Shown piece by piece: positions 12,097-57,414 of a stretch of 64,000 bases of DNA. Position 1 is the stretch's first letter. Every line of letters begins with the position of its first letter. Under the pieces are notes generated by a model. That model made no database searches. It was not told where the DNA came from and worked only from the letters and a program-made list of their open reading frames with translations. Both the position numbers and the translations under genes were made by a program. Origin of the DNA: an uncultured Gammaproteobacteria bacterium (GTDB lineage Bacteria > Patescibacteriota > Patescibacteriia > SG8-24 > DYFX01); assembly GCA_964404275.1 (NCBI GenBank), contig CAYOJH010000005.1:4471-68470 (forward strand). The letters run 5' to 3'.

Positions 12097-14223
12097 ATGA
12101 AACCGCTTCATTCTACCATTTTGGCTTCGGTTGGAGGAGCCCTGGCGGCCCTGGGCCTGGCCTCGCCGGCCTTCGCCTTGCTCCTGCCGATCGGAGGGAC
12201 CCTGTTCCTGGCCGGAATGGCGGAAACCGCCGGAAAGCTGGCGTTCCCCGAGGAACGCTCGCCGATCCGCGGCTTGTTCGGGCTTCTCGGAGCCCTGGCG
12301 TTGATTTCGACGGCCGGCGCGATCGTCTATTACTTCTCCAAGCTCGATACGGTCGGCCTTTCCTGGCTGTGCGTCACGCTGCCCTGGGCGCTGTTCGCCG
12401 TCTCGCCGTTCGGCGCGCGCGTGCGCGAACATGTCGAGAAACCGACCTTGATCGTTGAAAAATCTTCGCCGGAAGATTCCCTTTCGGGCGTGCTCCTGCT
12501 CATCGCCGTCGCCGCCGATCTGGCCGCGCTGCGCTGGTTGTGGGGCGCCCGCACGGCCGAGGCCATCCGCTCCCCATGGGAAGTCGTCTCGCCGCTGTAT
12601 TTCCTGTGGATCGGCCTGGCGGCCTTCTGCCTGATCGCGCTCGCCTACCGCCGGCGCTTTCCGCACCTGACCTTGGCCGCCGCGTCGCTGCATCTCTTCG
12701 CGATGCTCGCGCCCGCCGCCTTGGTCTATGCCGTCGGATTCGGATTCGATCCGTTCGTGCATCAAGCCGCCGAGAAGCTCGTTTTCGCCGCGGGCGTCGT
12801 GACGCCGAAGACGCCGTACTACATCGGGCAGTACGCGCTGGTGACGGTCCTGACCAAGCTGTTCCGTTTGCCGATCGTGGCCGTCGATCGGTTCTTGCTG
12901 CCGACCTTGACCGCGCTTTTCCTGCCGGCCGCCGCGGCTTGGCTCCTGCGCCGCGGCTACGGCGTGCCGCGCGCGCTCGCTTTGGTCGCTTCCCTCGGCA
13001 TTTTTCTTTTGCCGCTCAGCGCCTTCGCTTCGACGACGCCGCAAGGCCTGGCCGATCTTTTTTTTCTGCTGACGATGCTGCTCGGCGCGGCTTGGCTCCA
13101 CGGGCACCGTCCCCCGCTCGGTTTCGTGTTACTGCTCGCCTTCGCGGCCGCCGCCACGCATCCGCTCTCTGGCGTGCCCGCGCTCATGGCCGCGGTCCTG
13201 CTCATGATCGCCAAGCTGCGCCATGACGGGCTGCCGGCGGCCAGGATCGCCAAGACCGTCGCTTTCGGCCTGGCCATCGGAATGGCGGCCGTGGCCATCC
13301 CGTTCGTTTTCGCCGTCCGCGAAGGCTCGGGCGTCGCGCCGCTCGTTTCGGCGTTCCACAAACCGATCGCGGAACTGCTGCTTGGCATCCCGTTCGAAGC
13401 GCCCGGCCTCGCCTCGCGCTACCGGCCGATCCTCGACTTCGCCGAATTCCTGGCGCGCAATCAAGACGCGTTCTTGTTCCTCTTGGCCGGCGCGGGCGCT
13501 TGGCTCCTCTTGCGGCGCAGAGGCTACCGCCGTTCGGCGCTCGCCGCGGGCGGACTTTCCATCGCCTTGCTGATCTCCGTCGCGATCCTCCGCAGCAGTT
13601 TCGTTTTCAAAGACGTGATCGGCTACGAGCAGGCCAACTACGCCGATCGCTTGTACGACGCCGCGCTCTTGTCGCTCGCCCCGTTGGTCTTGGCCGGCGT
13701 GGCCTGGTGGTGGCGCGCGCTGTCCAAGGCGGAGCACGGAGTGCGCATGCTGCACGCGCTGCTCTTCGCCGCCGCCATCTCCGCGCTCGCCTACGCCGCC
13801 TTCCCGCGTCTCGACGACTACCGCTTCAGCCGCGGCTACTCGGCCTCGATCCATGACGTCCGCGCCGTCGACTGGATCAACGCGCACGGCGTCGCGCCCT
13901 ACGTCGTCCTCGCGAACCAATCGACCTCGGCCGCCGCGCTTTCGGAATTCGGCTTCAAAACGTATTACGGCTCGCAATTTTATTACGCGATCCCGACCGG
14001 CGCGCCGCTGTATCAGTCGTATCTCGAGATGGTCTACGGCGGCGCCAAGCGCGAGACGATGGAAGCGGCCATGCGCGAGATGCAGGTGCCGACCGCCTAC
14101 TTCGTGATCGACAGCTATTGGACGAACGCTTCAAGCGTCATCGCGGCGGCGAAAAAAACCGCCGATGACTGGCAGGACATCGACGGCGGACAAGCCATGA
14201 TTTTCCGCTACGCGCTCAAGTAG
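12097..14223 (+). CDS. Large polytopic membrane protein (708 aa) with C-terminal soluble domain; possible second GT-C-like transferase
   Basis: At least 12 hydrophobic helices followed by ~170-aa hydrophilic C-terminal domain; architecture reminiscent of GT-C enzymes; no motif proof. ATG only 20 nt from divergent start at 12076. Confidence 0.5.
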   Translation: MKPLHSTILASVGGALAALGLASPAFALLLPIGGTLFLAGMAETAGKLAFPEERSPIRGLFGLLGALALISTAGAIVYYFSKLDTVGLSWLCVTLPWALFAVSPFGARVREHVEKPTLIVEKSSPEDSLSGVLLLIAVAADLAALRWLWGARTAEAIRSPWEVVSPLYFLWIGLAAFCLIALAYRRRFPHLTLAAASLHLFAMLAPAALVYAVGFGFDPFVHQAAEKLVFAAGVVTPKTPYYIGQYALVTVLTKLFRLPIVAVDRFLLPTLTALFLPAAAAWLLRRGYGVPRALALVASLGIFLLPLSAFASTTPQGLADLFFLLTMLLGAAWLHGHRPPLGFVLLLAFAAAATHPLSGVPALMAAVLLMIAKLRHDGLPAARIAKTVAFGLAIGMAAVAIPFVFAVREGSGVAPLVSAFHKPIAELLLGIPFEAPGLASRYRPILDFAEFLARNQDAFLFLLAGAGAWLLLRRRGYRRSALAAGGLSIALLISVAILRSSFVFKDVIGYEQANYADRLYDAALLSLAPLVLAGVAWWWRALSKAEHGVRMLHALLFAAAISALAYAAFPRLDDYRFSRGYSASIHDVRAVDWINAHGVAPYVVLANQSTSAAALSEFGFKTYYGSQFYYAIPTGAPLYQSYLEMVYGGAKRETMEAAMREMQVPTAYFVIDSYWTNASSVIAAAKKTADDWQDIDGGQAMIFRYALK

Positions 14224-18014: not shown

Positions 18015-18689
18015 TCAATCGAGGAAACGGCGCAGGATCAATTTCAAAGCGGTCTCGATGCCGACGGCCAGGTTTTGGCCTTTCGACAGCGAATAATCGG
18101 TGTAGACGGCTTCGATCGGCACTTCGGCGAGACGGAAGCGCTTGTCGGCGATCTCTTTGACGAACTCCGAAGAGACTTCCATGCGCGAGGTGCGGAGCGT
18201 CAGCCGCTCGGCGGCGTGGCGCGCCATGCCGCGCAGGCCGCTCTGGCTGTCGGTCACCCATTTGCCGAAGAGCGCATAGGTCAGCGCGTTGCCGAACCAT
18301 TGAGCCAGGCGCCGCGCGACGGGCATGTTCCCCTTCCCCTCGAGCATGCGCGAGCCGATCACGAAATCAACGTCGCCTTCGGACAGGCGCTCGAAAATCC
18401 GTTTGGCGTCCTCCGCGCGATGCTGTCCGTCGGCGTCCATCGTGACGATCTGATCCGCGCCGAGCCGGAGCGCGCCGGCGATGCCGGTGCCGATCGCGCC
18501 GCCCAAGCCGCGATTGACCGCGTGCCGCGCCACCAAGGCGCCGGCGGCCGAAGCGATCTCGGCCGTGCGGTCGGAGGACCCGTCATCCACCACCAAGACG
18601 ACGTCCGCGATGGCATGCGCCGCGCGCACGACTTCGCCGATCGCCCGTTCCTCCTGGTAGGCCGGAATGACGATGATCCGTTTTTCCAT
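18015..18689 (-). CDS. GT2 polyprenyl-phosphate glycosyltransferase (DPM1/ArnC-like)
   Basis: VIPAYQEE...VVDDGSSDRT...MDADGQH...DVDFVIGSR...SGLRGM motifs of dolichyl/undecaprenyl-phosphate sugar synthases. Confidence 0.8.
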   Translation of the reverse strand: MEKRIIVIPAYQEERAIGEVVRAAHAIADVVLVVDDGSSDRTAEIASAAGALVARHAVNRGLGGAIGTGIAGALRLGADQIVTMDADGQHRAEDAKRIFERLSEGDVDFVIGSRMLEGKGNMPVARRLAQWFGNALTYALFGKWVTDSQSGLRGMARHAAERLTLRTSRMEVSSEFVKEIADKRFRLAEVPIEAVYTDYSLSKGQNLAVGIETALKLILRRFLD

Positions 18690-19746: not shown

Positions 19747-21384
19747 TCAGGGTTTGAAAAGCACGACGGGCTGGAGGTCCTTGTCGGTTTCGATGGTCGG
19801 GTCGGCGGCCTTTTCCGCCGCCGGTTGGTCGTCCGCGGAGCTCAAGATGTCGGGTCCGAACCGATAACCGGCCAAGAAGGCGTCCGGCAGGTCGTCCACC
19901 AGGCTGGCCCAGTTGGGACCGTAGATCGAAGCGGCGACTTGTTCGGAAACGATATGCCGCAAGTAGCCGCCCTTGCCGACCGCGTAGACGTCCGGCAGCG
20001 TCTGGACCTTGATCAGCCGCGTGCCGGGGCGGTACGTGATCATGCCGCCGAGCGGCAGCGCCGCCAGCGCATTCTCGGAAATCGTCTTGACCTGGGTGAA
20101 ATCATGGAACCAGGTGGCATACGTTTTCGCGTTGGGGAAAACGTAGCGCTTGCCGTCGGCCGCCTCGTAATAGACGGACGAGAGTGCCGGTGATTTCACG
20201 AGGATGCCTCCGACGGCGGGCGGGACAGGCAAGCCTTGCGTCGGGATGGCCGAGATCGGAGCGCCCAGCAGTTTCGCTTCGACGGCGGCAACCGAGGCAG
20301 CCGCGTCGATGCGGCCGGCGCCGAGCTGGCCTCCGTACCCGCCGTTGATGCCATCGACATTCACGGCGTGCGCGGTGATGAGCGCTCGCACGGCCGCGGG
20401 CGTCAAGGTCGGATCGAGCGAAAGCAGCAGGGCCGCGACGCCGGAGACGATCGGCGCGGCCAGCGAAGAGCCGGACCAGCCGTCGCCGTACGGCTGATTG
20501 AAACCGGCGATGCCGGGACGATAGACCTGCGTGGTCGCGATGTTTTCGCCCGGCGCGGAAACCGTGATGCAATCCGAACCGTAGCTCGAAAAGCTCGAAC
20601 GGCGGCCCTGCTGATCCAGGGACGCGACGCCGATCAGGATCGGTTCGTCGGAGGCGCCGCGATAGCAGACGGGATATTCCGGATAGACGTTCAAGTTGCC
20701 GCCGCGCTCCGTGTCGCCTTCGTTGCCCGCCGCCGCCACGATCACGATGCCGGCTTTGTACGCGTCCCGCAGCGCATCGGCCAGGGCTTGGCTCTCGTTC
20801 GGACCGCTGAAGCTGATGTTGATGACCTGCACGCGCCGCGCAATGGCATACCGCACGGCCGCCACGACCGCGGAGCTTCCGCCCGAACCATTGCTGTCCA
20901 AAACGCGCAGCGGCAGGATCCTCACGTTCCAGTTCACGCCCGAAATGCCCTCCGCGTTATTGCCGACCGCGCCGATCAAGCCGGCCACGAGCGTCCCATG
21001 GTTCGCGCCTTCCTGCGAAACCGCCCCGGTCAAGGCCGGGCTCGGATCGTTGTCATTGTCGACGAAATCCCAGCCGTGCACGTCGTCGACGTAGCCGTTG
21101 TGATCGTTGTCGAGGCCGTCGCCGGGGATCTCTCCCGAGTTGGTCCAGATGCGATCCTGAAGATCCGGATGCGTCAGGTCGACGCCCGAATCGAGCACGG
21201 CGACCGTAACCGTCGGCGAACCCTTGGCGAAATTCCAAGCATCCGGAAGCCCGACCGCGCCGAGATACCACTGATCCTTATACAGTGGATCGTTCGGCGC
21301 GGCCGCCAAGGCCGGAGCCGCCAACAACAACACGCCCAAAAAGGCGCTGGCGGCTTTAAAATAGGCGGTGCTCCGCTTTTTCAT
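19747..21384 (-). CDS. Secreted subtilisin-family (S8) serine protease with C-terminal ~120-aa domain shared with adjacent giant surface protein
   Basis: Signal peptide (AFLGVLLLAAPALAAAPNDP), catalytic Asp (VLDSGVD), His (HGTLVAG), Ser (GSSLAAPIVSG); C-terminal extension (res ~398-520). Confidence 0.9.
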   Translation of the reverse strand: MKKRSTAYFKAASAFLGVLLLAAPALAAAPNDPLYKDQWYLGAVGLPDAWNFAKGSPTVTVAVLDSGVDLTHPDLQDRIWTNSGEIPGDGLDNDHNGYVDDVHGWDFVDNDNDPSPALTGAVSQEGANHGTLVAGLIGAVGNNAEGISGVNWNVRILPLRVLDSNGSGGSSAVVAAVRYAIARRVQVINISFSGPNESQALADALRDAYKAGIVIVAAAGNEGDTERGGNLNVYPEYPVCYRGASDEPILIGVASLDQQGRRSSFSSYGSDCITVSAPGENIATTQVYRPGIAGFNQPYGDGWSGSSLAAPIVSGVAALLLSLDPTLTPAAVRALITAHAVNVDGINGGYGGQLGAGRIDAAASVAAVEAKLLGAPISAIPTQGLPVPPAVGGILVKSPALSSVYYEAADGKRYVFPNAKTYATWFHDFTQVKTISENALAALPLGGMITYRPGTRLIKVQTLPDVYAVGKGGYLRHIVSEQVAASIYGPNWASLVDDLPDAFLAGYRFGPDILSSADDQPAAEKAADPTIETDKDLQPVVLFKP

Positions 21385-21404
21385 GTGGGTAGTGTAGCCG
21401 AAGA

Positions 21405-21443
21405 AAGAACGAACGCAAACCCCTGCACCGGATGGTGCAGGGG
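21405..21443 (-). terminator. Rho-independent terminator downstream of giant surface-protein gene
   Basis: CCCCTGCACC-GGAT-GGTGCAGGGG 10-bp stem; on minus strand followed by TTTGCGTTCGTTCTTTCTT. Confidence 0.6.
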
Positions 21444-21494
21444 CATTGCGTTCCTTAAGGATTCCCTTAGGGCGCGGACGAGGTCACGCTCTGA

Positions 21495-24400
21495 TTAGGA
21501 GCGGGTCATCGTCTGAGCGTCCGACGGGAGAACCTTGATGAAGCGACCGTTCGTCCAGTCGTTCGACGAGCCAGACGCATCCGACGAAAGGTTGGTGTCA
21601 ACCACGTCGTTATGCGGGATCAGGCTATTGTCGGACCAGATGAAGTTGTACTCGCCGTCAGCGGCAGAGCCATCATAGTCGTCGATGGCGGTGTGAGCGA
21701 CGGACGAGAACGTGAACGGAACGCCGTTGTCCAATTCACCCGTCACCTGGGCGGTGTCGCCGAGGAGCGAGGTGCTGATGGACTCTCCGGAAGCGTCAGC
21801 GCCAGCAACCGTCACGCGAAGCTCATAGGTCTTCGACGTACCGGCAGCAATCGTCTGTTCGTTGGTGAACGAGACGTGGAGCGTGCAGGACGCGGAGGAA
21901 GCGGTAGCGCAGCTACCGATGTCAGAGGCACCAGCGATGTTGGAGCCTTGACCCACTTCGCGGATCATCGAGTCGGCCGCAGTCGTGCTGGCCGAGATGT
22001 TCGAGCCTGACACGTTGTTCAGGTTGAGGTTGAAGGACACCGTCTTGAGCGAGAGCTGCTGGGCCGCATCGGCCGTCACCGTGAAGCGAGAGATCACCTG
22101 CGTGCCGTTCGACAGGGTCGAGGTCGGCAGCGCGGCGAGGCTCACCGTCGGCTTGGTCTTGCGGTTGCGCTTTTCGCGGCCGCTGACAGCGCCCGAGTTG
22201 CCGACGAGATCGATCGTGCTGGAGCCGGCGGACGTGCCGCGGACTTCATACGTACCGGTGTCGCCGGAGCAGTCCGAGTTGGCGCCATCGCAGAGCTTGA
22301 CGGTCAGGTCGAGACCGGAGGCAGCGCCGCCGGAACCAACCGCGTTCAGGTCACCCTTGACGGTCAGCGTCTTCGAGCTGTCCTTCAAAACGACGAAGGA
22401 GAAGCCGGAGAAGTCCGCGTTACCCGAAGAGTTCACCGAGACCGGGCCGGCAACCATCGTTGAACCATCGTACAACCAGAGGTTGTTGACGGCCGTGACG
22501 GAAGCGGACGGGATCGACAAGCGAACCTTATCGAGCTTGAGGTCTTCGCTTTGCGCCGTGAAGCGGTACTTGGCGAGAACCGAGGTCGTGCCGCCGAGGA
22601 CGATGCCTGCTTCGGATTCAGAATCATCCGGGGCGAGAGCATAGGTCATCGAGCCGTTGGCCGAGATGATCATGCTGGCAGACGTCACCGAACCGGACTT
22701 CGAGACGGCGTTGCCATCCTTGTCCTGAGCGGTCACGTCGGCGTTCGCGACGGTGAAGCGAATCGTGTCGTTCAGGTTGGCGATCGAGCCGGAGAGGTTG
22801 CCCGAGAGGGACAACGTCACCGTCTGACCGGCCGGAACGACGAGGTTCATGTTGCTGAACTGCAGGAGACCGCCATCGTTCGAGGCGCAGGACGCCGTCG
22901 AGGAAGTCGGACTCTTGATGTCACCCACCTGGGTGGTGCCGTTCATCAACTTGGCCGAGAGCAGGATGTCGGTCGCGAACTTGTCGGTCGAGCCCGTGTC
23001 AAGGCCGTTTTCACAGCCGTTGGCAAAGGTCGTGTCGTTGTTCGCGTCGACCTGCGTCTGGACCGTCATCGAGGTGACCGTCACGTCGCCGCCCTGGCCA
23101 GCCTGGAGGCTGATGCCGGCGAGCGGAGCGTTCTGGGTGCCCTGGATGTAGGTCTGCGCAACCGGCGTGGAGGCCGTCGAAACGGTCAGCGTCGGAGTGC
23201 GCAGGGTCATCGCGTTACCCGTGATCGTCGAGGACGGGACGATGGTCGACGTGTCGACGAAGGTCGAGTTGTCGAGGTTGCGGATGTCGCTCGACTGGAA
23301 CGGCGAGAGACTCAATTGAATCGAGTCGCTGTCGAGAGCCGCCTGGTTCGCGACGTCCATCGTCACCTTGAAGGTGCGCGACTGGCCGGCGGACAACGAG
23401 AACACGTCCGTGTAGACGAGGTTCTGAGTGGTGTCGTTGCCGGAGATATCGACGTCCTTCGGACCAGCGACGACCTGGCTGGAAGCCGTGTCCGTCACCT
23501 TGATGTCGGTGTAGTTCGCAACGCTCGGGGAACCCGAGGAGTTGACGAGACCACCGGCGGCATCAATGCCGGTCGCCGTGATGGCGAGGCGGAGGTTGCG
23601 GACTTCGACGTTGGACTGCGAAGCGAGCGTGAAGTTCAGGACTTCCTGATCTTTGCCGTTCGTCGCAATGTCATGCGCGGCCGGGCCATTGAAGGTGATC
23701 GTGATCTGACCGCCTTCCACCGCCGAGTACGAGCAGTCGCCCGCGCTCGAGGTGCAGCTGTCGCCGTCGTACGCAGTGCGCGTAACGGAGGCGCCATAGC
23801 CGAACGTGCGGCCGACAGCCCAGACGTCAGTGTCCTCTTCCGTGGCGAGCTTGACGGTGTCACCCGAGCGGGCGCCGCCACCGATATCGCCCCAGACCTC
23901 GTAGGTGCGGGTGTTGCCCTTTTCGAGGAGGGTGTTCTGCGTCAGGACGAAGGTCACATGATCCTTGGCATCGATACCGGACGCCGACGCAACGTCAGTG
24001 CCGCCGGAGCGGAGCTTGAGGTTGGTCAAGTTGGACGACGCGATATTGCCGCTCTGGAAGAGCGTGATGCGCTTGATGTCGAGGTCTTCAGCCGCTCCAG
24101 CGGAGAGCTGGAACTCGGCAAGCTTCACGCCCATCTGACCGACTTTCGGGTTGGTGATCGAACCGCTCTTGGCGATCGTGACCGAACCAACCGTCGCGCC
24201 GGCGAGAGTCATGTTGTTGCCCGAGACCGGGAGACCGGAAGCCGTCGAGGTGCCGCTCATGAGAGAGGTGACCTGGAAGGCGTTCACGTCACCGGACGAA
24301 GCCGAGCCGGACATCGTCGCGGCGACCCAGAAGGTCCGGGTCTGGCCGGCGGCGAGGTTCCAACCGAGGCTGTTGAAGGTGACATCGTTCGTCGAGCTGT

Positions 24401-25208
24401 TGACGGAGCGGCCCGTGGTCAGACGGACATCGCCTTCGAACAGGTAGACGTTCGAGAAGTCAGACGGCGAACCGGCGCCCATACGATGGAGCGTGACGGA
24501 GTCGACCGAGAGGGCCGAACCCGTGCCGTTCGAGACGTTGAACTTCATGTAGTTCACGCCGACCGCGCCCTTCGGCACCGTGGCCGAAGCCGGGCTGTCG
24601 GACGCGAGGCTGACGGAGAGACCGGAGAGCATACCAGGACCCGAGGACAAGTTCTTGTCCTGGTTGATGGTCTGGCTTCCGCTCATTTCGTTGGCCTTGT
24701 TGTAGTCCGAAGCCGCATTCAACGCCGAACCCATCGAGTAGTTCGTGAAGAACGCGTCGGAGACGTCGTCAATCTGCTTGTTCCAGGTGGAACCGTACAG
24801 ACCGGAAGCGACGGCTTCGGAAGCGATCGGACGGAGGGTGCCGCCTTTGGAGATGGCATAGACCTTCGGATCGCTCTGAATCTTGATCATCTTCACGCCC
24901 GGGCGATAGGTGACGTTGCCACCGATCTGGACGGAAGCGAGATCAGCGTCAGAAATCTTCATGACGCCGCTGAAGTCGGAGTACCAAGTGAAGTACGCCT
25001 TGTCGTTCGTGAACACGTAGCGCTTTCCATCGCCACCGCAGTAGTAGACAGCGGCGAGAGAACCTTTGATGAGACTACCGCTCGTGCAGCCGGCGGCAGA
25101 AGCCTTCAAAGGAGCGACGAGGACGGTCGCCATCATCGACCAAAGAATGGTCGTGAGGACAACGCCCATCGTCAGAGCCTTGCGGCTCATTTTGAGGACA
25201 TCGGTCAT
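21495..25208 (-). CDS. Giant (1237 aa) secreted Thr/Ser/Gly/Asn-rich surface protein, S-layer-like / adhesin-like
   Basis: N-terminal signal anchor (VVLTTILWSMMATVLVAPLKASAAG); N-terminal ~125-aa domain homologous to subtilase C-terminus; remainder low-complexity beta-rich repeats; start chosen at ATG 25208 (AAGGA upstream). Confidence 0.7.
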   Translation of the reverse strand: MTDVLKMSRKALTMGVVLTTILWSMMATVLVAPLKASAAGCTSGSLIKGSLAAVYYCGGDGKRYVFTNDKAYFTWYSDFSGVMKISDADLASVQIGGNVTYRPGVKMIKIQSDPKVYAISKGGTLRPIASEAVASGLYGSTWNKQIDDVSDAFFTNYSMGSALNAASDYNKANEMSGSQTINQDKNLSSGPGMLSGLSVSLASDSPASATVPKGAVGVNYMKFNVSNGTGSALSVDSVTLHRMGAGSPSDFSNVYLFEGDVRLTTGRSVNSSTNDVTFNSLGWNLAAGQTRTFWVAATMSGSASSGDVNAFQVTSLMSGTSTASGLPVSGNNMTLAGATVGSVTIAKSGSITNPKVGQMGVKLAEFQLSAGAAEDLDIKRITLFQSGNIASSNLTNLKLRSGGTDVASASGIDAKDHVTFVLTQNTLLEKGNTRTYEVWGDIGGGARSGDTVKLATEEDTDVWAVGRTFGYGASVTRTAYDGDSCTSSAGDCSYSAVEGGQITITFNGPAAHDIATNGKDQEVLNFTLASQSNVEVRNLRLAITATGIDAAGGLVNSSGSPSVANYTDIKVTDTASSQVVAGPKDVDISGNDTTQNLVYTDVFSLSAGQSRTFKVTMDVANQAALDSDSIQLSLSPFQSSDIRNLDNSTFVDTSTIVPSSTITGNAMTLRTPTLTVSTASTPVAQTYIQGTQNAPLAGISLQAGQGGDVTVTSMTVQTQVDANNDTTFANGCENGLDTGSTDKFATDILLSAKLMNGTTQVGDIKSPTSSTASCASNDGGLLQFSNMNLVVPAGQTVTLSLSGNLSGSIANLNDTIRFTVANADVTAQDKDGNAVSKSGSVTSASMIISANGSMTYALAPDDSESEAGIVLGGTTSVLAKYRFTAQSEDLKLDKVRLSIPSASVTAVNNLWLYDGSTMVAGPVSVNSSGNADFSGFSFVVLKDSSKTLTVKGDLNAVGSGGAASGLDLTVKLCDGANSDCSGDTGTYEVRGTSAGSSTIDLVGNSGAVSGREKRNRKTKPTVSLAALPTSTLSNGTQVISRFTVTADAAQQLSLKTVSFNLNLNNVSGSNISASTTAADSMIREVGQGSNIAGASDIGSCATASSASCTLHVSFTNEQTIAAGTSKTYELRVTVAGADASGESISTSLLGDTAQVTGELDNGVPFTFSSVAHTAIDDYDGSAADGEYNFIWSDNSLIPHNDVVDTNLSSDASGSSNDWTNGRFIKVLPSDAQTMTRS

Positions 25209-25302
25209 AAGTGATGAGATCCTTTCTTCAAGTTTAGTTTCAGCGGCACGGCCTTGCGGCCTCGACCTTCTTAGCGCCACTGTTGCCCAAAGGGCCCGTC
25301 CG

Positions 25303-25401: not shown

Positions 25402-26331
25402 TTACGGCGACGTCGCCGTGGCGCTTCCGTTGGTTTCGGCGGTCGCCGTGGCGGAGCCGTCCGTTCCGGAGTTCTTGTCGGCCGTCTCGGCTTGCGTGAC
25501 GAGATCGGCGCTTTCGTTGACCTTCAGGACCGCGGCGCGGAAGTCGCCTTGCGAGAGCAGCTGTTTGGCTTCTTCGACGGCCTGTTTGGCCTTGGTGGTG
25601 AGGAGCAGGCTTTGCGAGGTTGTCTTGGCCCCCAAGCTGTCCTGGGCGACCGCCACGTGAGCGGCGAAGGTGTCGATGCGTTTGCCGACCGACGAGGTCA
25701 GCTCCGCTTCTGGTAAGACGTTGGCCGCAAGGCTTTGTTTCTCCACGAGAATCTCCAGGGCTTTGACGGAAACCTGGTCAAGATTGAGCAGGGCCAGGCG
25801 AAGCGCGGGGCGTCCGACCAGGAGGCCGTTCTTGAACAGGTCCTGGTAGGCGTCGGTTTTGGCGTCGACTTGCATCGCGACTTTGACGGCGACATCGGCG
25901 TTGCCTTCCGTTTGGAGCTCCGCCAGATCCTGGCGGATGCCGATCATTTCGTCCGAGAAGAGGCTGGCGGCTTTGGCGATCTTGGCTTCCTTGTCCGAGC
26001 CGGAGCTGGTGGACAGGCGGGCGATTTCATCGAGGCGGCGTCCGGCGATTTCCACGCGCCGTTCGGTGCGATCCGATTTCGAGGCGAGACGCAGGCTGAC
26101 GGCTTCGGCGGCGAGTTTCACGCCGTAGAGCATGTTGCCCGGCAGCGTGTCGTGCGCGGCCGCGACCAGCGCGGCAGACGAGGCGCCGGCGCCCGCGACG
26201 AGCAGCAGCATCATGGCCGGCACGGCCAGCGTCCTGGCCAGGTTCTCCGGCATGAAGAGGCGGAGGTTCCCAGCGAATGCGCGAAAACCGGTCCGCCGTT
26301 CCTGGCCGACCGTGTTTCCGATTTGCATCAT
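25402..26331 (-). CDS. DUF5667-type membrane anti-sigma-factor-like protein
   Basis: Start at ATGATG with AAGGAGA RBS 6 nt upstream; single TM (LAVPAMMLLLVAGAGASSAALVAAA) followed by coiled extracytoplasmic domain; located directly after ECF sigma gene. Track ORF start further upstream would overlap sigma gene. Confidence 0.6.
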   Translation of the reverse strand: MMQIGNTVGQERRTGFRAFAGNLRLFMPENLARTLAVPAMMLLLVAGAGASSAALVAAAHDTLPGNMLYGVKLAAEAVSLRLASKSDRTERRVEIAGRRLDEIARLSTSSGSDKEAKIAKAASLFSDEMIGIRQDLAELQTEGNADVAVKVAMQVDAKTDAYQDLFKNGLLVGRPALRLALLNLDQVSVKALEILVEKQSLAANVLPEAELTSSVGKRIDTFAAHVAVAQDSLGAKTTSQSLLLTTKAKQAVEEAKQLLSQGDFRAAVLKVNESADLVTQAETADKNSGTDGSATATAETNGSATATSP

Positions 26332-26386
26332 TAACGTCTCCTTCGTGGACGCAAGCCAACGCGCGTCCGGGCTTCCGCCCGCACGC

Positions 26387-26995
26387 TCATCCTTCAGCGC
26401 CTTCAGTTGCTTTACGATGGAGTTCATTGTCGTTTGTGGTTTCCGCGGCGACCAGATCCCGGATGGCCGAGAGTGCGCGATGCAGGAGCACGCGCACGTT
26501 GCCATGCGTTTTGCCGAGGATCTTGGCGATCTCGAAGGTTTCGAGCTCGTCCAAATATTTCATGACGAGCACTTCGCGATATTCGTCCTTGAGCGAGCGG
26601 AGATGCTTTTCGAGCATCGCCACGTCGATCTTGGCGTCCGTCTGTTTTGAAGTCGCGCGGTCGTCCGCGATCTGCTCTTCCGCCTCCTCTAAGAGAGGAA
26701 GGGTCTCGCGACCGGCTTTCGACCGGTAGTGGTCGATCACGCGGTTGCGAGCGATACCGTAGAGAAGCGCGCTCAGGTGTCTCACTTCCTTGCCCTTCTC
26801 GTCTAAGAGATAGGACCAGGCCTTCAGGAAGACGTCGGCGGTGAGGTCTTGCGCCTCTTCCACGGACGACACCTTAAAGTAAACAAAACGATAGATCCGT
26901 GTGGCGTAGAGATCGTAGATCTTTCCGTACGCCTCCGGATCTTTCTTCGCGCGAACTCGGTAAAGGAGAAGCTTCTCTTGGAGCGGATTGCTCAT
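26387..26995 (-). CDS. ECF-family RNA polymerase sigma factor (sigma-70 regions 2 and 4)
   Basis: Region 2 (YDLYATRIYRFVYFKV...DLTADVFLKAW) and region 4 HTH (EVLVMKYLDELETFEIAKILGKTHGNVRVLLHRA). Confidence 0.85.
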   Translation of the reverse strand: MSNPLQEKLLLYRVRAKKDPEAYGKIYDLYATRIYRFVYFKVSSVEEAQDLTADVFLKAWSYLLDEKGKEVRHLSALLYGIARNRVIDHYRSKAGRETLPLLEEAEEQIADDRATSKQTDAKIDVAMLEKHLRSLKDEYREVLVMKYLDELETFEIAKILGKTHGNVRVLLHRALSAIRDLVAAETTNDNELHRKATEGAEG

Positions 26996-27195: not shown

Positions 27196-27510
27196 ATGGA
27201 GTCTCCCAAGAACATCATCCGCGTGTCCGTCTCCGAAGCCGCCAAGCTTTTCGGCATTTCGACCCGTACGATCCGCCGCGCCATCACCGACGGCGAAGTC
27301 GCCTATGTGGTCGTTCGCGGACGGTATAAACTGAACTTTGAGAGCCTCGTGAAGTGGTCCCAGGTCCGCCCGACCGTCCGCAACAAGCTGGCCACGACCG
27401 GCATCGGCCAGTTCGTCGAGCACTGGAAGATCCGCAACAAGCTGTTCAGCCCGAACCCAAAAGTTTTCGAACCGAAGGACGAGGAGAAAAAGAAGAGCTC
27501 CGACGATTGA
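27196..27510 (+). CDS. Small helix-turn-helix DNA-binding protein (excisionase/MerR-like HTH_17)
   Basis: VSVSEAAKLFGISTRTIRRAITDGEV motif; 104 aa with acidic/lysine-rich tail. Confidence 0.55.
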   Translation: MESPKNIIRVSVSEAAKLFGISTRTIRRAITDGEVAYVVVRGRYKLNFESLVKWSQVRPTVRNKLATTGIGQFVEHWKIRNKLFSPNPKVFEPKDEEKKKSSDD

Positions 27511-27560: not shown

Positions 27561-29591
27561 ATGCGTCACACGCGCGCGACATCCGCCCTGGCCATCCTCA
27601 CGATCTTCGCGATCGTTTCTTCGGCTGCCCCGAAGCCCGCGCTAGCCCGCGCGTCCTCCGACAAATTCGTCCGCCTCGCCAACAACTATATGAAGGCGGG
27701 CATCACGCTCCCCTCTTCCGACTACGACAAGCTCGCGTCCTACGACGTGCTCGTCCTGCCGGTCGAAGCGCAGATTTTCAACCCCGACATTTTCGACGCG
27801 CTGCGCCGCAAGAATCCGAACATCGTGATCTTGGCCTACGTGCCGACCAAAAGCTACGCCAAGATATGGAGCGAGAACCCGCTCGACACGCTGCATCCGA
27901 AACTCAAGGCGCGCGTGAACGATGCCGAACGGCTGCATACGCCCGACGGCCAGATCCTTTCCGTCTGGCCCGGCACCGAAACCTATAACGTCTCGACCGG
28001 CTGGAGCGACGCGCTCGCGAGCTTCGTCTCGCAGGACGTGATGTCGTCCGGAAAATGGGACGGCATCTTTTACGACGAAACCTCCGCCACGATCTCGTGG
28101 CTCAACGGCGGCAATGTCGACGTGAACAACGACGGCCAGAAGGACGACGCCGCCACGGCCGACCGCCTGTGGAAAGACGGCATGATCCATCTCTTCAAGA
28201 CGACGCGCGACCTGATCGGGTCCGGACCGATCATCATCACGAACGGCGATTCCGACCGCGATTTGCAGCCGTACCTGAACGGCCGCATGTTCGAGACCTT
28301 TCCGACGCCCTGGGAGTACGACGGCAGCTGGGCGACGGTCATGAACAATTACCTCCATCTTCAAAAGCAGGTCGGCTACCCGCCGCTCTTCATCATCAAC
28401 AGCAACACGAACGATACCGGCAACCAGAACGATTTTCGAAAGATGCGCTACGGGCTGACCTCGACCCTGATGGGCGACGGCTTCTATGAATTCGATTACG
28501 GCGACCAGGATCATGGCCAGACCTGGATGTATGACGAATACCGCGCCTACCTCGGCACGCCCGTCGCCGACGCGAAAAACCTGACCGGCTCGACCGACCC
28601 CGTCCGCGCCGGCGTCTGGCGCCGCGATTTCCAGCACGGCACCGTGCTCGTCAATTCCAGCAATCAAACCCAGACCGTCGACCTGAACGGCGATTTCGAG
28701 CACTTGCACGGCGCGCAGGATCCGAAAACGAACGACGGCACAATCGCGAGCATCGTCACGATTCCGCCGCAAGACGGGCTGCTGTTGCTGCGTCCGCTCG
28801 AGCATCTCGAGAACGCCGAATACCGCAACGGCGCCTTCACGCGCGTGCTCACGAGCACCGGCGCGGCGCATCGCAACGGCTTCTTCGCCTATGACGACGC
28901 GGAGAAGGGCGGCCTCGACCTGGCGGAATTCCAGCCGAGCAACGGAGTGTCGAACGTGACCGTCGCGGTCAAAGGCAATCATCTCGACCTGGTCGACGCG
29001 CAGGGCCGCATCCTGAAGAGCGTCTTTCCGTTCGGCGCCGATTGGACCAAGAGCCTGAACCTCGGCTACGGCAAAGCCGGCGGCGTCTCGTATCTGTCGG
29101 TCGGCGCGGGGCAAGGCGGCGCGCCCTATGTGCGCGCGTATGATGAGAACCTCAATCCGCTGACGGACGCCTTCATGGCCTATGACCACCGCTTCACGGG
29201 CGGCGTCAACGTTTCGATCGGCGACACTGACGGCGACGGACAGCCGGACCTCGTGACCGGCGCGGGCGCCGGCGGCGGTCCGCACGTGCGCGTTTTCGGC
29301 CTTGATCAAAGCGTCAAAGCGCAGTTTTTCGCCTACGATCAAAAATTCACCGGCGGCGTGTACGTGGCCGTCGGTGACGTGGACGGCGACGGCGCGCAGG
29401 AGATCGTGACCGGCCCGGGCTTCGGCGGCGGTCCGCACGTGCGCGTCTGGAACCGTTACGGCCAGCTCAAGAACCAGTTCTTCGCCTTTGACAGCACGAA
29501 GCGCGGCGGCGCGCGCGTATCCGTCGGCGACGTGGACGGCGACGGCACGTTCGAGATCCTCGCGATGACCAATGACGTCTTCACGCTTTGA
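27561..29591 (+). CDS. Secreted protein: N-terminal TIM-barrel-like polysaccharide hydrolase-like domain (GH114/Sph3-like class, inferred) plus C-terminal FG-GAP/VCBS beta-propeller repeats
   Basis: Signal peptide (ALAILTIFAIVSSAAPKPALARA); conserved acidic/aromatic strand ends (VLVLP, IVILAYV, GIFYDE, IIITNGD); four C-terminal repeats of GDxDGDGxxExVTGxGxGGGPHVRVW type. Confidence 0.6.
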   Translation: MRHTRATSALAILTIFAIVSSAAPKPALARASSDKFVRLANNYMKAGITLPSSDYDKLASYDVLVLPVEAQIFNPDIFDALRRKNPNIVILAYVPTKSYAKIWSENPLDTLHPKLKARVNDAERLHTPDGQILSVWPGTETYNVSTGWSDALASFVSQDVMSSGKWDGIFYDETSATISWLNGGNVDVNNDGQKDDAATADRLWKDGMIHLFKTTRDLIGSGPIIITNGDSDRDLQPYLNGRMFETFPTPWEYDGSWATVMNNYLHLQKQVGYPPLFIINSNTNDTGNQNDFRKMRYGLTSTLMGDGFYEFDYGDQDHGQTWMYDEYRAYLGTPVADAKNLTGSTDPVRAGVWRRDFQHGTVLVNSSNQTQTVDLNGDFEHLHGAQDPKTNDGTIASIVTIPPQDGLLLLRPLEHLENAEYRNGAFTRVLTSTGAAHRNGFFAYDDAEKGGLDLAEFQPSNGVSNVTVAVKGNHLDLVDAQGRILKSVFPFGADWTKSLNLGYGKAGGVSYLSVGAGQGGAPYVRAYDENLNPLTDAFMAYDHRFTGGVNVSIGDTDGDGQPDLVTGAGAGGGPHVRVFGLDQSVKAQFFAYDQKFTGGVYVAVGDVDGDGAQEIVTGPGFGGGPHVRVWNRYGQLKNQFFAFDSTKRGGARVSVGDVDGDGTFEILAMTNDVFTL

Positions 29592-44482: not shown

Positions 44483-44887
44483 GGGGATGTATAGATTCGA
44501 TGGAGTTCGTTCTCAATTCGCGCAGGTTGACGGCGCCCGCCCGTCATAAATCACCGGGCAAACGACTACGTGCCAACGTTTTCGCAAAAGCCAAGGCCGC
44601 GTTCGCTCGCGCGTTCGCGCCGTCCTTCGCTCCGGTCTTCGCCTAAGCGCGACTGACCCATCGCCCGTCGACATCTTCTAGACGGATCCCGGTGTCATAA
44701 GAAGGTCCGCCGCATGTTCCGCCGAGAGGCATGCGATACGGTTGGATCCAGGCACGGACGCATGCCACTCGTCGCCTCTATGCATGCGCTCCGGTCCCGC
44801 TTGCGGGAAAACCCGAGACGACTACGCCTGTAGTGCGGATTGTCCTACTTCCTCCAGACCCGGGTGCGAATCCCGGCATCTCCACCA
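44483..44887 (+). ncRNA. ssrA: tmRNA (SsrA), one-piece
   Basis: 5' GGGGATG...ATTCGATGG (tRNA-like acceptor/D analog), 3' T-arm CCCGGGTGCGAATCCCGG and acceptor CATCTCCACCA pairing with 5' end; located immediately after smpB; internal Ala-rich tag frame ending TAA. Confidence 0.8.
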
Positions 44888-56090: not shown

Positions 56091-56178
56091 CGTTTTCCTG
56101 TTACCCTGGCGCGTTGCTCTTTGGAAAATTCACCCCTACCGAAAACCCCTAGCCCGACACCAAGAAAGAGAGGTGGCT

Positions 56179-57414
56179 ATGGGCCACTCCAGCGTCGTCC
56201 CGTCCGAAAAGGACCCGCCCTGCGAGAAGTGCAACCAAGACTGGCAACGTCACACGCTCCTGGGCATGAAAGACGGCGTGTTCCACATGGAATGCGACCG
56301 CGATCCCGCCCTCGGCATCGACCCGAACCTGCAGAGGATCGACGACTTGCTCGCGGCCGAAAAGAACGCCAAGAGCCTCGAAGATCGCCTGACGCAGCGC
56401 GTGGCCGATCGGGAAGACGAGCACAAGGCTCGGATCCAGACCCTCGAACAGGAGCTAAGGCAGAAGAGCCTCAGGCTTCAGGATCTGGAAGCCCGCGCCG
56501 GCCGCCAAGATGAAGTCATCAGGGAGACCTGCGATAGGGCTCTCGACGCGCAGAAGAGGGTCCATGCGGCCGAGATCGATCCGCTTCGCCAGAAGCTGGC
56601 CGATCACGCGGAGCTGCAAACCAAGCTGGCCGAAAGCGAAAACAACTATCGGCTGGCCAAGAGCGGCAACGACGCGCTCATCGCCGACGCGCACAAGCTC
56701 AACGAAGCGTTGGCGAAAGCCAAAGAGGAAACCGCGAAAGCGCGCTTCAATCTGAATCTCGCCGAAGGCGAGCTGGAGCAGTTGCGCAGCGACTACGAGA
56801 GCCTCAAGAAGGGTCTCGAGAACCAGACGATCCGCGTCGGCCAACTCGAAGCCCAGCTGCTCGCGCGGCACGCTCCGGCCACTCCCCCGCCCTTCAAAAA
56901 GGCCGAGGAGAAGGCGCCAGTGCCCGCCGCGCCGGACACCGTCCAGATGCCGGCGGCGGAGCTTCCGAACGAGAAGGAGTTCCTCGTTCCCGACGAGGTC
57001 TCCGTGATCGAGGAGAAAGAAGCCATCGCGATCGGCGGCGGCAACACGGAAGCGCTGCAGAGCATGGATCTCATCCCGCTCGACCCCGTATCGAAGGGGG
57101 AAGAGGACGAGGAAGAGGCCTTCGAAGCTCCGCCGTGCGACGTCTGCGGTCAGACCGCCGTCGCGCAAGCGCCTTTCGAACCCAAGCCCGGCGCGACGGA
57201 CGATGACGGACAGCTGATGGGACCGGCCACGCTCTACGCCTGTCTCAAGGACAGCCAAGACTGCAACGGTTTCCAAGCCGCCCTGGGCGCGCTGGAAGAG
57301 CACTTCCAAAATCCTCCCAAGGATCTGGAAGAGCTCCGCAAGCGTTTCCGGCCGTTGTATCCCGCCGCGCACCTCGTCTCCAACGACCGCACCCAAGAGG
57401 AGATCCGCTCATGA
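56179..57414 (+). CDS. Coiled-coil protein with symmetric terminal CxxC zinc-ribbon-like motifs
   Basis: N-term PPCEKC...H...HMEC and C-term PPCDVC...C...C flanking ~250 aa of heptad-like Ala/Glu/Leu/Lys-rich sequence; RBS GAGAGG. Confidence 0.55.
   Translation: MGHSSVVPSEKDPPCEKCNQDWQRHTLLGMKDGVFHMECDRDPALGIDPNLQRIDDLLAAEKNAKSLEDRLTQRVADREDEHKARIQTLEQELRQKSLRLQDLEARAGRQDEVIRETCDRALDAQKRVHAAEIDPLRQKLADHAELQTKLAESENNYRLAKSGNDALIADAHKLNEALAKAKEETAKARFNLNLAEGELEQLRSDYESLKKGLENQTIRVGQLEAQLLARHAPATPPPFKKAEEKAPVPAAPDTVQMPAAELPNEKEFLVPDEVSVIEEKEAIAIGGGNTEALQSMDLIPLDPVSKGEEDEEEAFEAPPCDVCGQTAVAQAPFEPKPGATDDDGQLMGPATLYACLKDSQDCNGFQAALGALEEHFQNPPKDLEELRKRFRPLYPAAHLVSNDRTQEEIRS

Follow-up and report, generated by a model that had tools for sequence, protein, structure and literature searches.

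A domain shared by a secreted subtilase and a giant surface protein is a probable cell-wall anchor of Patescibacteria

Why do two neighbouring genes, one for a secreted subtilase and one for a giant surface protein, encode the same module at opposite ends of their products? This question is raised by a 64-kb stretch of contig CAYOJH010000005.1 from an uncultured bacterium, and the whole of this stretch is called the window in the following. A preliminary description of this DNA had pointed to a module of ~120 amino acids, alignable without gaps at ~50% identity, that is common to the C-terminus of the subtilase and the N-terminus of the giant protein, and had proposed that it is a shared cell-wall anchoring domain. 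We named the shared module MOD. Its folded unit has ~150 amino acids, the part added to the earlier extent being a C-terminal helical hairpin. The two genes contain the following features, with coordinates given on the window.

19747..21384, minus strand: secreted subtilase (S8) of 545 amino acids with a C-terminal MOD, matched by Pfam Peptidase_S8
19774..20226, minus strand: MOD copy 2, S8 residues ~387-537, ending in TIETDKDL
21398..21453, minus strand: terminator-like hairpin of 19 base pairs with a U-rich tail, directly after the giant gene and before S8
21495..25208, minus strand: giant surface protein of 1237 amino acids, with signal peptide, MOD, linker and an all-beta body of multiple Ig-like domains
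21498..24617, minus strand: body of the giant protein, residues ~198-1237, acidic, Ser/Thr-rich, all-beta Ig-like domains
24639..25091, minus strand: MOD copy 1, giant residues ~40-190, two repeats of ~55 amino acids and a helical hairpin ending in TINQDKNL
25092..25208, minus strand: signal peptide of the giant protein, residues 1-39 (...APLKASA|AG), read from the sequence and kept in P0001 and orthologues

Comparing both proteins by BLASTP gave one single significant match, between S8 residues 367-537 and the N-terminus of the giant protein (144 bits, E = 2e-40, 43% identity over 171 columns). The two strings of 109 amino acids quoted in the preliminary description align without gaps with 56 of 109 positions identical (51%), whereas the best of 20,000 shuffles reached 19 identities. 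With an entropy of ~4.0 bits and 19 residue types the MOD segment is not of low complexity. A chance or low-complexity origin of the similarity is ruled out by the entropy and the shuffles together, and the possibility raised at the outset, that the similarity might be confined to low-complexity sequence, was checked on the computed alignments and is not the case. The shared segment is therefore as first described, and only its extent had to be corrected. Searching with both modules by tblastn in all six frames found these two copies only in the window.

Both genes are read in the same direction and are separate, with a gap of 110 nucleotides between them. The open reading frame of the giant protein spans 21495..25280 on the minus strand, and translation very likely begins at the ATG at 25208, for a product of 1237 amino acids, because an AAAGGA ribosome-binding site lies ~10 nucleotides upstream and an identical database protein (P0250) has 1237 amino acids. 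The hairpin in the gap has a predicted RNA folding energy of -48.7 kcal/mol (z = -5.3, with 0 of 200 shuffles as stable), which suggests strong termination or attenuation between the two genes and bears out the earlier view that they are adjacent and separately terminated. A simple promoter and terminator scan of the window gave counts at the shuffle expectation and missed this hairpin, which was detected by folding instead.

No family of Pfam-A or NCBIfam covers MOD, PG_binding_1 (Pfam: PF01471), LysM, CW_binding_2/CWB2 and SH3b included. For SLH (Pfam: PF00395) there was no match at E ≤ 1 in either protein, while the same scan detects three SLH repeats in the orthologue P0342. A MOD profile searched against the PDB sequences returned only spurious matches to the antibody framework AVYYC. 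Sortase anchoring does not apply either: S8 ends in ...DLQPVVLFKP and the giant protein in ...SDAQTMTRS, neither with an LPXTG motif or a transmembrane segment. The module is thus, as had been stated before, not SLH, LysM, CWB or LPXTG.

A first homology search with MOD gave 100 matches, in which all named proteins are called "hypothetical protein" and the stated sources are Patescibacteria or Uhrbacteria. The profile search of 1.84 billion cluster representatives extended the family to 5,640 clusters at 50% identity (E ≤ 1e-3), with 2,738 clusters at E ≤ 1e-30, and a scan of one genome per species gave at least 598 genomic matches. The 79 MOD loci that were retained are titled Patescibacteria, Uhrbacteria, Falkowbacteria, Parcubacteria, Minisyncoccota or Saccharibacteria, and many "uncultured Gammaproteobacteria". 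We read the latter label, found on third-party assemblies, as a depositor placeholder, because a cassette of sigma factor, DUF5667 and giant genes (described below) is present under both the Patescibacteria-type and the "uncultured Gammaproteobacteria" labels. Of two small contigs with MOD, one bears the label of a clostridial bin and the other that of an archaeon. MOD is an uncatalogued extracytoplasmic domain of ~150 residues, essentially all of it specific to Patescibacteria and mostly found in Uhrbacteria.

Among the 2.9 million viral contigs of IMG/VR there is one match. A phage origin of MOD was considered and rejected, as this single contig carries MOD on a non-lysin protein at its end. 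The protein on this 38-kb contig (L081, 584-2089) has 501 amino acids and an N-terminal MOD; its gene adjoins large phage-tail-like genes, one of them with a lytic-transglycosylase-like C-terminus, and may mark a prophage boundary.

What kind of fold does the module have? AlphaFold2, run on a 47-sequence alignment, predicted MOD with a mean predicted local distance difference test score (pLDDT) of 95.8 and a predicted template modelling score of 0.88. The model consists of two successive units of ~55 amino acids, each with four short strands and two helices, followed by two more helices. The latter, residues 136-150 of the modelled segment, carry TINQDKNL with a pLDDT of ~97 and, being confidently modelled, would belong to the domain. 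Homology between the two units is indicated by aligning the first half with the second by hhalign, which gave E = 2.8e-4 over 51 columns. A model of the complete mature giant protein again showed the MOD fold, followed by a low-confidence linker.

The motif of the tail hairpin, [ST]-[ILV]-x-x-D-[KR]-x-[LIV] (abbreviated sIN-DK-L), follows the repeat pair in 124 of the 229 N-terminal MODs whose downstream sequence is long enough. Where MOD ends a protein, the motif can sit 12-20 residues upstream of the repeat pair instead, and it was never observed on both sides. We read this as a circular permutation, in which the helical hairpin with the motif may complete the domain from either side. Two cysteines covary, one located ahead of the first strand and the other within "VYYC": among the distinct MOD sequences both are present in 76, one in 9 and neither in 296. 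This pattern fits a putative structural disulfide of an exported domain.

The sole fold matches of MOD in the PDB, all of them weak, are EccB repeats and phage-lysin or endolysin wall-binding domains of the PlyCB type. Eleven EccB1/3/5 chains rank first in the Foldseek search (E 0.017-0.7, probability up to 0.84) and LysIME-EF1 comes next. The EccB repeats have four strands and two helices and are PlyCB-like, PlyCB being the only structural neighbour found for them; peptidoglycan binding was suggested for these repeats, and PlyCB is the wall-binding subunit of a phage lysin (PMC4769845). Judged from the model, MOD may be assigned to the EccB/PlyCB fold class, with scores that are weak and no proof of homology. 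At the sequence level neither Pfam nor the PDB sequences gave a match of MOD to EccB (Pfam: PF05108) or PlyCB. By its model, MOD would resemble EccB of the mycobacterial ESX or type VII system, and likewise PlyCB, LysIME-EF1 and Lys170, in its tandem repeats of ~55 residues and its predicted location at the cell envelope. It differs from EccB and PlyCB in lacking detectable sequence similarity to them, in having exactly two repeats plus the sIN-DK-L hairpin, and in being a portable terminal module on many proteins, neither part of a secretion machine nor of a lysin.

The most informative carrier of MOD with regard to its role is the giant protein. Its body has an isoelectric point of 4.5 and contains 25% serine and threonine. 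AlphaFold2 predicts it to be all beta (pLDDT 91.5), and its Foldseek matches are generic multi-Ig-like structures only: PrgB, antigen I/II, alpha-2-macroglobulin/C5 and integrin legs. There is no known S-layer protein among its top 50 Foldseek matches and self-BLAST found no internal repeats in the body. A preprint of 2024 describes a predicted Patescibacterial S-layer protein with a signal peptide, six Ig-like domains and a length of 1131-1274 amino acids; many homologues of it are spread over the Patescibacterial classes, and they rank with the most highly expressed secreted proteins (bioRxiv 10.1101/2024.05.28.596244). Compared by description only, the giant protein agrees with it: 1237 amino acids, a signal peptide, MOD and a multi-Ig-like body. 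The earlier label "S-layer-like" is reasonable, since the protein has a signal peptide as well as a probable anchor, its body is all-beta, acidic and rich in Ser/Thr, and its size and architecture fit the published prediction; on the model the giant protein is probably an S-layer protein.

Homologues of the giant body number 250 at E ≤ 1e-5 and are found in Jorgensen-, Wildermuth-, Lipton- and Falkowbacteria. Among the 120 that were listed, the full-length ones have 1062-1363 amino acids and nearly all cover 98-100% of the body. An N-terminal MOD is found in 86 of these 120. The other 34 divide into classes of 16, 1, 6, 9 and 2. In the class of 16, a coiled coil and PG_binding_1 occupy the slot of MOD, as read from the N-termini and flagged for most of them by precomputed Pfam annotation; PG_binding_1 was verified at residues ~72-146 in six members of this class, which comes from Jorgensen-, Wildermuth- and Liptonbacteria. 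One protein, P0342, has three SLH repeats in the slot. In six the N-terminal module is a MOD of divergent sequence (hhalign E = 7e-10, probability 96.5%), nine have an N-terminal triple repeat that is alike in style and only weakly similar to MOD by profile (hhalign E = 1.2e-3, probability 19%), and two are fragments. The triple repeat is formed of three ~60-residue units (GT-W-MI..G.RRAYTS.GAF.SYGF...) in P0303, P0312, P0313, P0318-P0320, P0328, P0333 and P0344, and may be another uncatalogued anchor.

The same structural protein thus uses MOD, PG_binding_1 or SLH interchangeably as its N-terminal module. SLH and PG_binding_1 are unrelated to MOD in sequence and fold, and because they hold the same N-terminal position on orthologues, the three appear functionally interchangeable in evolution. 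Of all arguments for MOD as a wall anchor, its displacement by PG_binding_1 or SLH on the same body is the strongest. We consider it probable, going by sequences and models, that MOD is a non-covalent cell-wall anchor and the functional equivalent of SLH, PG_binding_1 or CWB2. The anchoring role proposed before is favoured by three independent indirect lines: the weak fold matches, the terminal and promiscuous architecture, and the occurrence of PG_binding_1 or three SLH repeats at the same position.

Several points weigh against this anchoring role. Homology, fold, taxonomic distribution, the domain arrangements of the carriers, synteny and the substitution of MOD by known wall-binding domains are observed; wall binding by MOD, a ligand that would be peptidoglycan or a secondary wall glycopolymer, and any relation of protease and substrate are inferred from these. 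The displacement shows an equivalent position and not necessarily an equivalent ligand, and a common protein receptor would yield the same MOD architectures. Moreover, MOD is not basic, with a median isoelectric point of 5.5 and a median net charge of -1, and its charges lack the electrostatic signature for binding an anionic polymer that is usual for SLH and CWB2.

In a different explanation, MOD would serve for docking between proteins or for oligomerisation, either in the manner of a dockerin or by forming a ring in the style of PlyCB, with a membrane or wall receptor protein or the S-layer as its partner. The binding domains of enterococcal lysins are oligomeric. Likewise PlyCB forms an octamer (PMC4769845), the near-neutral charge of MOD would suit a protein partner, a terminal and promiscuous architecture is equally expected for a docking module, and genes for MOD proteins cluster beside the S-layer-like gene. 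We nevertheless hold docking to be unlikely, as the giant orthologues swap MOD for PG_binding_1 and SLH, which bind wall polymers and not proteins, and as the island loci, apart from their glycan genes, showed no conserved gene that might encode a receptor.

Besides the giant protein, MOD occurs on many different proteins. Of the 150 best representatives, 109 have it at the N-terminus only and 25 at the C-terminus only; another 12 carry a copy at each end, and three have an internal copy. An N-terminal MOD sits just behind the signal peptide, and all full-length carriers that were inspected begin with signal-peptide-like N-termini. Scanning 100 of the best representatives with Pfam gave 41 partner families. 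These include Big_7 (14 proteins), Pur_ac_phosph_N, fn3, Big_5, Big_1/invasin, ice-binding-like and cupredoxin domains, and further GH114, GH10, GH44, peptidase C25, trypsin and cohesin. In some fragments M23-peptidase motifs lie directly upstream of MOD.

This range of partners bears on the idea that MOD is a cleaved pro-domain, an intramolecular chaperone or an inhibitor, shared by the two proteins through a common maturation route. Subtilases often have accessory pro- or C-terminal domains, and the sIN-DK-L motif with the low-confidence linker behind it could be a processing site. Yet MOD is found on dozens of unrelated passengers that are not proteases, at either terminus, it forms a stable two-repeat fold with a probable disulfide, and its position is interchangeable with that of wall-binding domains. 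A match to a characterised pro-domain, which the preliminary description had named as a finding that would speak against its proposal, was not obtained from Pfam, NCBIfam or the PDB sequence profile. A pro-domain role is hence highly improbable.

A very common type of carrier has ~265 amino acids and combines MOD with a type-1 copper cupredoxin; its genes often form tandem arrays, with two or three members each. In the ~265-residue members of L028 and L043, whose sequences were read, the cupredoxin has His/Cys/His/Met ligand motifs. Such proteins look like wall-tethered electron carriers of Uhrbacteria, and because an electron carrier must stay at the envelope of its producer, they argue for MOD as an anchor to the own envelope. 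Tandem arrays of two or three paralogues of ~180-500 amino acids, each with an N-terminal MOD, are present at L016, L028, L032, L043, L045, L050 and L061 as well as at L063, L068, L069, L072, L078 and L079.

The cupredoxins also bear on the idea that MOD targets the surface of a host cell, so that an episymbiont would bring its hydrolases and adhesins to the wall of the bacterium that carries it. The fold neighbours are wall-binding domains of endolysins, the passengers include M23-like, S8, C25 and trypsin peptidases as well as GH10, GH44 and GH114, and Patescibacteria are widely inferred to be episymbionts. In contrast, the MOD-cupredoxins and the S-layer-like protein are sensible only on the envelope of the producer, PG_binding_1 and SLH displace MOD in an otherwise identical structural protein, and the single match in the viral contigs indicates that MOD is no phage lysin module. 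Targeting of a host is thus distinctly improbable.

The second carrier in the window, the subtilase, has a clear Peptidase_S8 domain (Pfam: PF00082) at residues 58-351 (179.8 bits, cutoff 21.8). Motif inspection places its catalytic residues in canonical motifs, with D65 in VLDSG, H129 in HGTLV, S307 in SGSSLAAP and the oxyanion residue N221 in AAGNEG, so the protease appears active. The fold match to EccB had given the idea that it is a type VII mycosin (TIGR03921); this was rejected, as it scores 160 bits against a cutoff of 278.75 and the similarity is that of S8 proteases in general. ESX genes were not seen in the neighbourhood. When the S8 catalytic domain was used as query, 96 of its 120 best homologues (44-100% identity) proved to have a C-terminal MOD, and those of the remaining 24 that were inspected carry FG-GAP repeats. 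We had considered S8-MOD as a rare lineage-specific fusion, as no S8 protease is among the top 150 module matches, and this view was overturned by the 96 homologues. Subtilases with FG-GAP repeats in place of MOD form a second S8 type in the islands described below.

If MOD is an anchor, its carriers would be exported by the Sec pathway and MOD would then keep the passenger protein in the wall zone of the producer. The giant protein and the S8 protease, encoded by neighbouring genes of the window, would both be anchored in this way and displayed in one compartment. The MOD genes are part of a conserved envelope island with an extracytoplasmic function (ECF) sigma factor, a DUF5667 anti-sigma-like protein, the S-layer-like protein, more MOD proteins, S8-MOD and a glycan cluster around a predicted polyprenyl-phosphate-sugar synthase. 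The features of the window around the two MOD genes are as follows.

12097..14223, plus strand: protein of 708 amino acids with ~12 transmembrane-like segments, not matched by Pfam or NCBIfam, closing the glycan cluster, with a 711-residue counterpart at the same position in L082
14216..17677, minus strand: one glycosyltransferase of family GT2 and two of family GT4, by Pfam, in the same order in L082, L086 and L087
17667..18011, minus strand: DUF2304 small membrane protein (Pfam E = 7e-25), three transmembrane-like segments
18015..18689, minus strand: GT2 protein like polyprenyl-phosphate sugar synthases (PpgS/AglJ-like), by Pfam GT2; PpgS 179 bits (below the cutoff of 370), AglJ 92 bits
18692..19699, minus strand: NAD-dependent sugar epimerase/dehydratase (UXS-like), first gene of the glycan cluster, by Pfam Epimerase/GDP_Man_Dehyd
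25250..25270, minus strand: AAGGTCG motif, with no other intergenic copy in the window, and short hairpin (GGCC-GCAA-GGCC), both upstream of the giant gene
25402..26505, minus strand: DUF5667 protein (Pfam E = 1e-8) with one transmembrane-like segment, its true start probably the ATG near 26427
26387..26995, minus strand: ECF-type sigma factor, first gene of the cassette, by Pfam Sigma70_r2/r4_2; TIGR02937 82.1 bits (cutoff 42.9)
27196..27510, plus strand: HTH_17 gene, divergent, by Pfam
~27561..29591, plus strand: secreted GHL15 (putative glycoside hydrolase) and FG-GAP protein, divergent, by Pfam

The cassette of sigma factor, DUF5667 and giant genes is found in at least 20 of the 79 related loci, and the giant gene is usually followed by one to three further MOD genes. 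The best NCBIfam subfamily of the sigma factor is BldN-like, below its cutoff. In the orthologous loci the DUF5667 gene always lies between the sigma and giant genes, and its product is a putative anti-sigma factor. The left flank with HTH_17 and GHL15 has the same arrangement in ~17 loci and also in L082. The gene for the GHL15 and FG-GAP protein lies next to the sigma gene and is read divergently from it in the window, L014, L017, L062 and L086, a conserved arrangement.

Upstream of the giant gene, "aAAGGTCG" occurs in 17 of 20 orthologous intergenic regions between DUF5667 and giant genes (among L002-L060). In ~14 of these 17 a hairpin follows after 3-6 nucleotides, with a sequence that varies between loci (predicted folds, read by eye), and a TAATTA/GCAAC-like element lies 15-17 nucleotides upstream of AAGGTCG. 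This region may be an ECF-sigma promoter, with "GTCG" as the -10 element, and a stabilising 5' stem-loop. The canonical ECF promoter GGAAC-N16-CGT was not found upstream of the giant gene.

On the side of the protease, we sampled six orthologous S8-MOD loci with 46-65% identity. In all six, S8-MOD is followed by the epimerase and GT2 genes, either at once or with one small GtrA gene in between, and the glycan genes usually include DUF2304, a second GT2 and two GT4. A giant-type gene is found zero to few genes upstream of S8-MOD in four of the six; DUF5667 precedes the giant gene in three (L082, L085, L086) and the sigma factor is visible in two. L083 has only a weakly similar partial giant gene, which is split from S8 by inserted toxin-antitoxin and transposase genes. 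In both loci that were checked for it, L082 and L083, the larger genes between giant and S8 also carry MOD. The island of anchor-sharing surface proteins, a protease with that same anchor and a glycan cluster is thus conserved.

Mobile or selfish elements are inserted into the island at several places (L083 1938-5073; L085 6953-7249 and 17510-18640; L086 14165-14428), among them HicAB, a HEPN/nucleotidyltransferase pair, a Y1 transposase (faint Pfam match), GIY-YIG and a reverse transcriptase. Elsewhere in the window lie a tmRNA gene at 44483-44887 on the plus strand (Rfam, 77 bits) and a tRNA-Gly(CCC) call at 57286-57375 on the plus strand, which is unusually long at 90 nucleotides and overlaps the end of the open reading frame 56173-57414.

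Do these neighbours define the function of the island? The synteny of the glycan cluster with the MOD genes is strong; the cluster might make the ligand of MOD, and glycosylation of the surface protein explains the synteny equally well. The PpgS-like GT2 protein of the window resembles AglJ and PgfS as well as PpgS, and the 708-residue membrane protein is a candidate glycosyltransferase, polymerase or ligase using a polyprenyl-phosphate sugar. Three loci with the PG_binding_1 type of giant homologue (L088, L089, L090) have a different context, conserved among them, in the order ClpB, a small protein (DUF5656 in L088), the homologue and two membrane proteins with a Wzy_C domain. The Wzy_C family includes O-oligosaccharyltransferases, and these neighbours hint at O-glycosylation of the surface protein. 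S8 might process the giant protein, a possibility suggested by conserved synteny.

Taken together, the elements of the island might form a display system specific to Patescibacteria. A lineage-specific wall glycopolymer, made by the adjacent cluster (UXS-like epimerase, PpgS-like GT2, DUF2304/GtrA, GT2, GT4s and the 12-transmembrane protein), would be the common ligand of dozens of MOD proteins per genome, and the hairpin of MOD would be a circularly permutable element. S8 would be the maturation enzyme of the S-layer, ECF and DUF5667 would be in control, and the whole would be a counterpart of CWB2, PSII and Cwp84 that evolved independently. As a complete account this is possible and we put it forward tentatively, considering it rather doubtful in all its parts at once.

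The system that invites this comparison is the slpA/cwp84/PSII locus of Clostridioides difficile, where the S-layer protein, its maturation protease and many surface proteins share one non-covalent anchor and their genes are clustered. SlpA, the SlpA-cleaving protease Cwp84 and other CWB2 proteins adjoin the locus that makes PSII, the ligand of CWB2 (PMC4973711). The layout of the window is alike, with a surface protein, an S8 protease with the same module and a glycan cluster, known here from the genes alone. There are also differences: CWB2 is a three-repeat Rossmann-like unit that was not detected in the window proteins, Cwp84 is a cysteine protease whereas the protease here is of the S8 type, and the two bacteria belong to different phyla. 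MOD is a variant of a well-known kind of module and no new principle.

A large share of bacterial diversity belongs to the Patescibacteria, also called the candidate phyla radiation; hardly any of them has been cultured and little is known of their envelope biology. MOD is a computational handle on their surface proteome, since the carriers of MOD become predictable as wall-associated proteins. For the Uhrbacteria type, the predicted surface set comprises a probable S-layer protein, proteases, glycosidases and blue-copper electron carriers. Recombinant MOD would be a possible reagent for finding the bound wall polymer and for labelling cells. Finally, the S-layer-like body that has MOD, MOD-like repeats, PG_binding_1 or SLH depending on the lineage is a clean example of anchor swapping, which may track differences in wall chemistry across the radiation.

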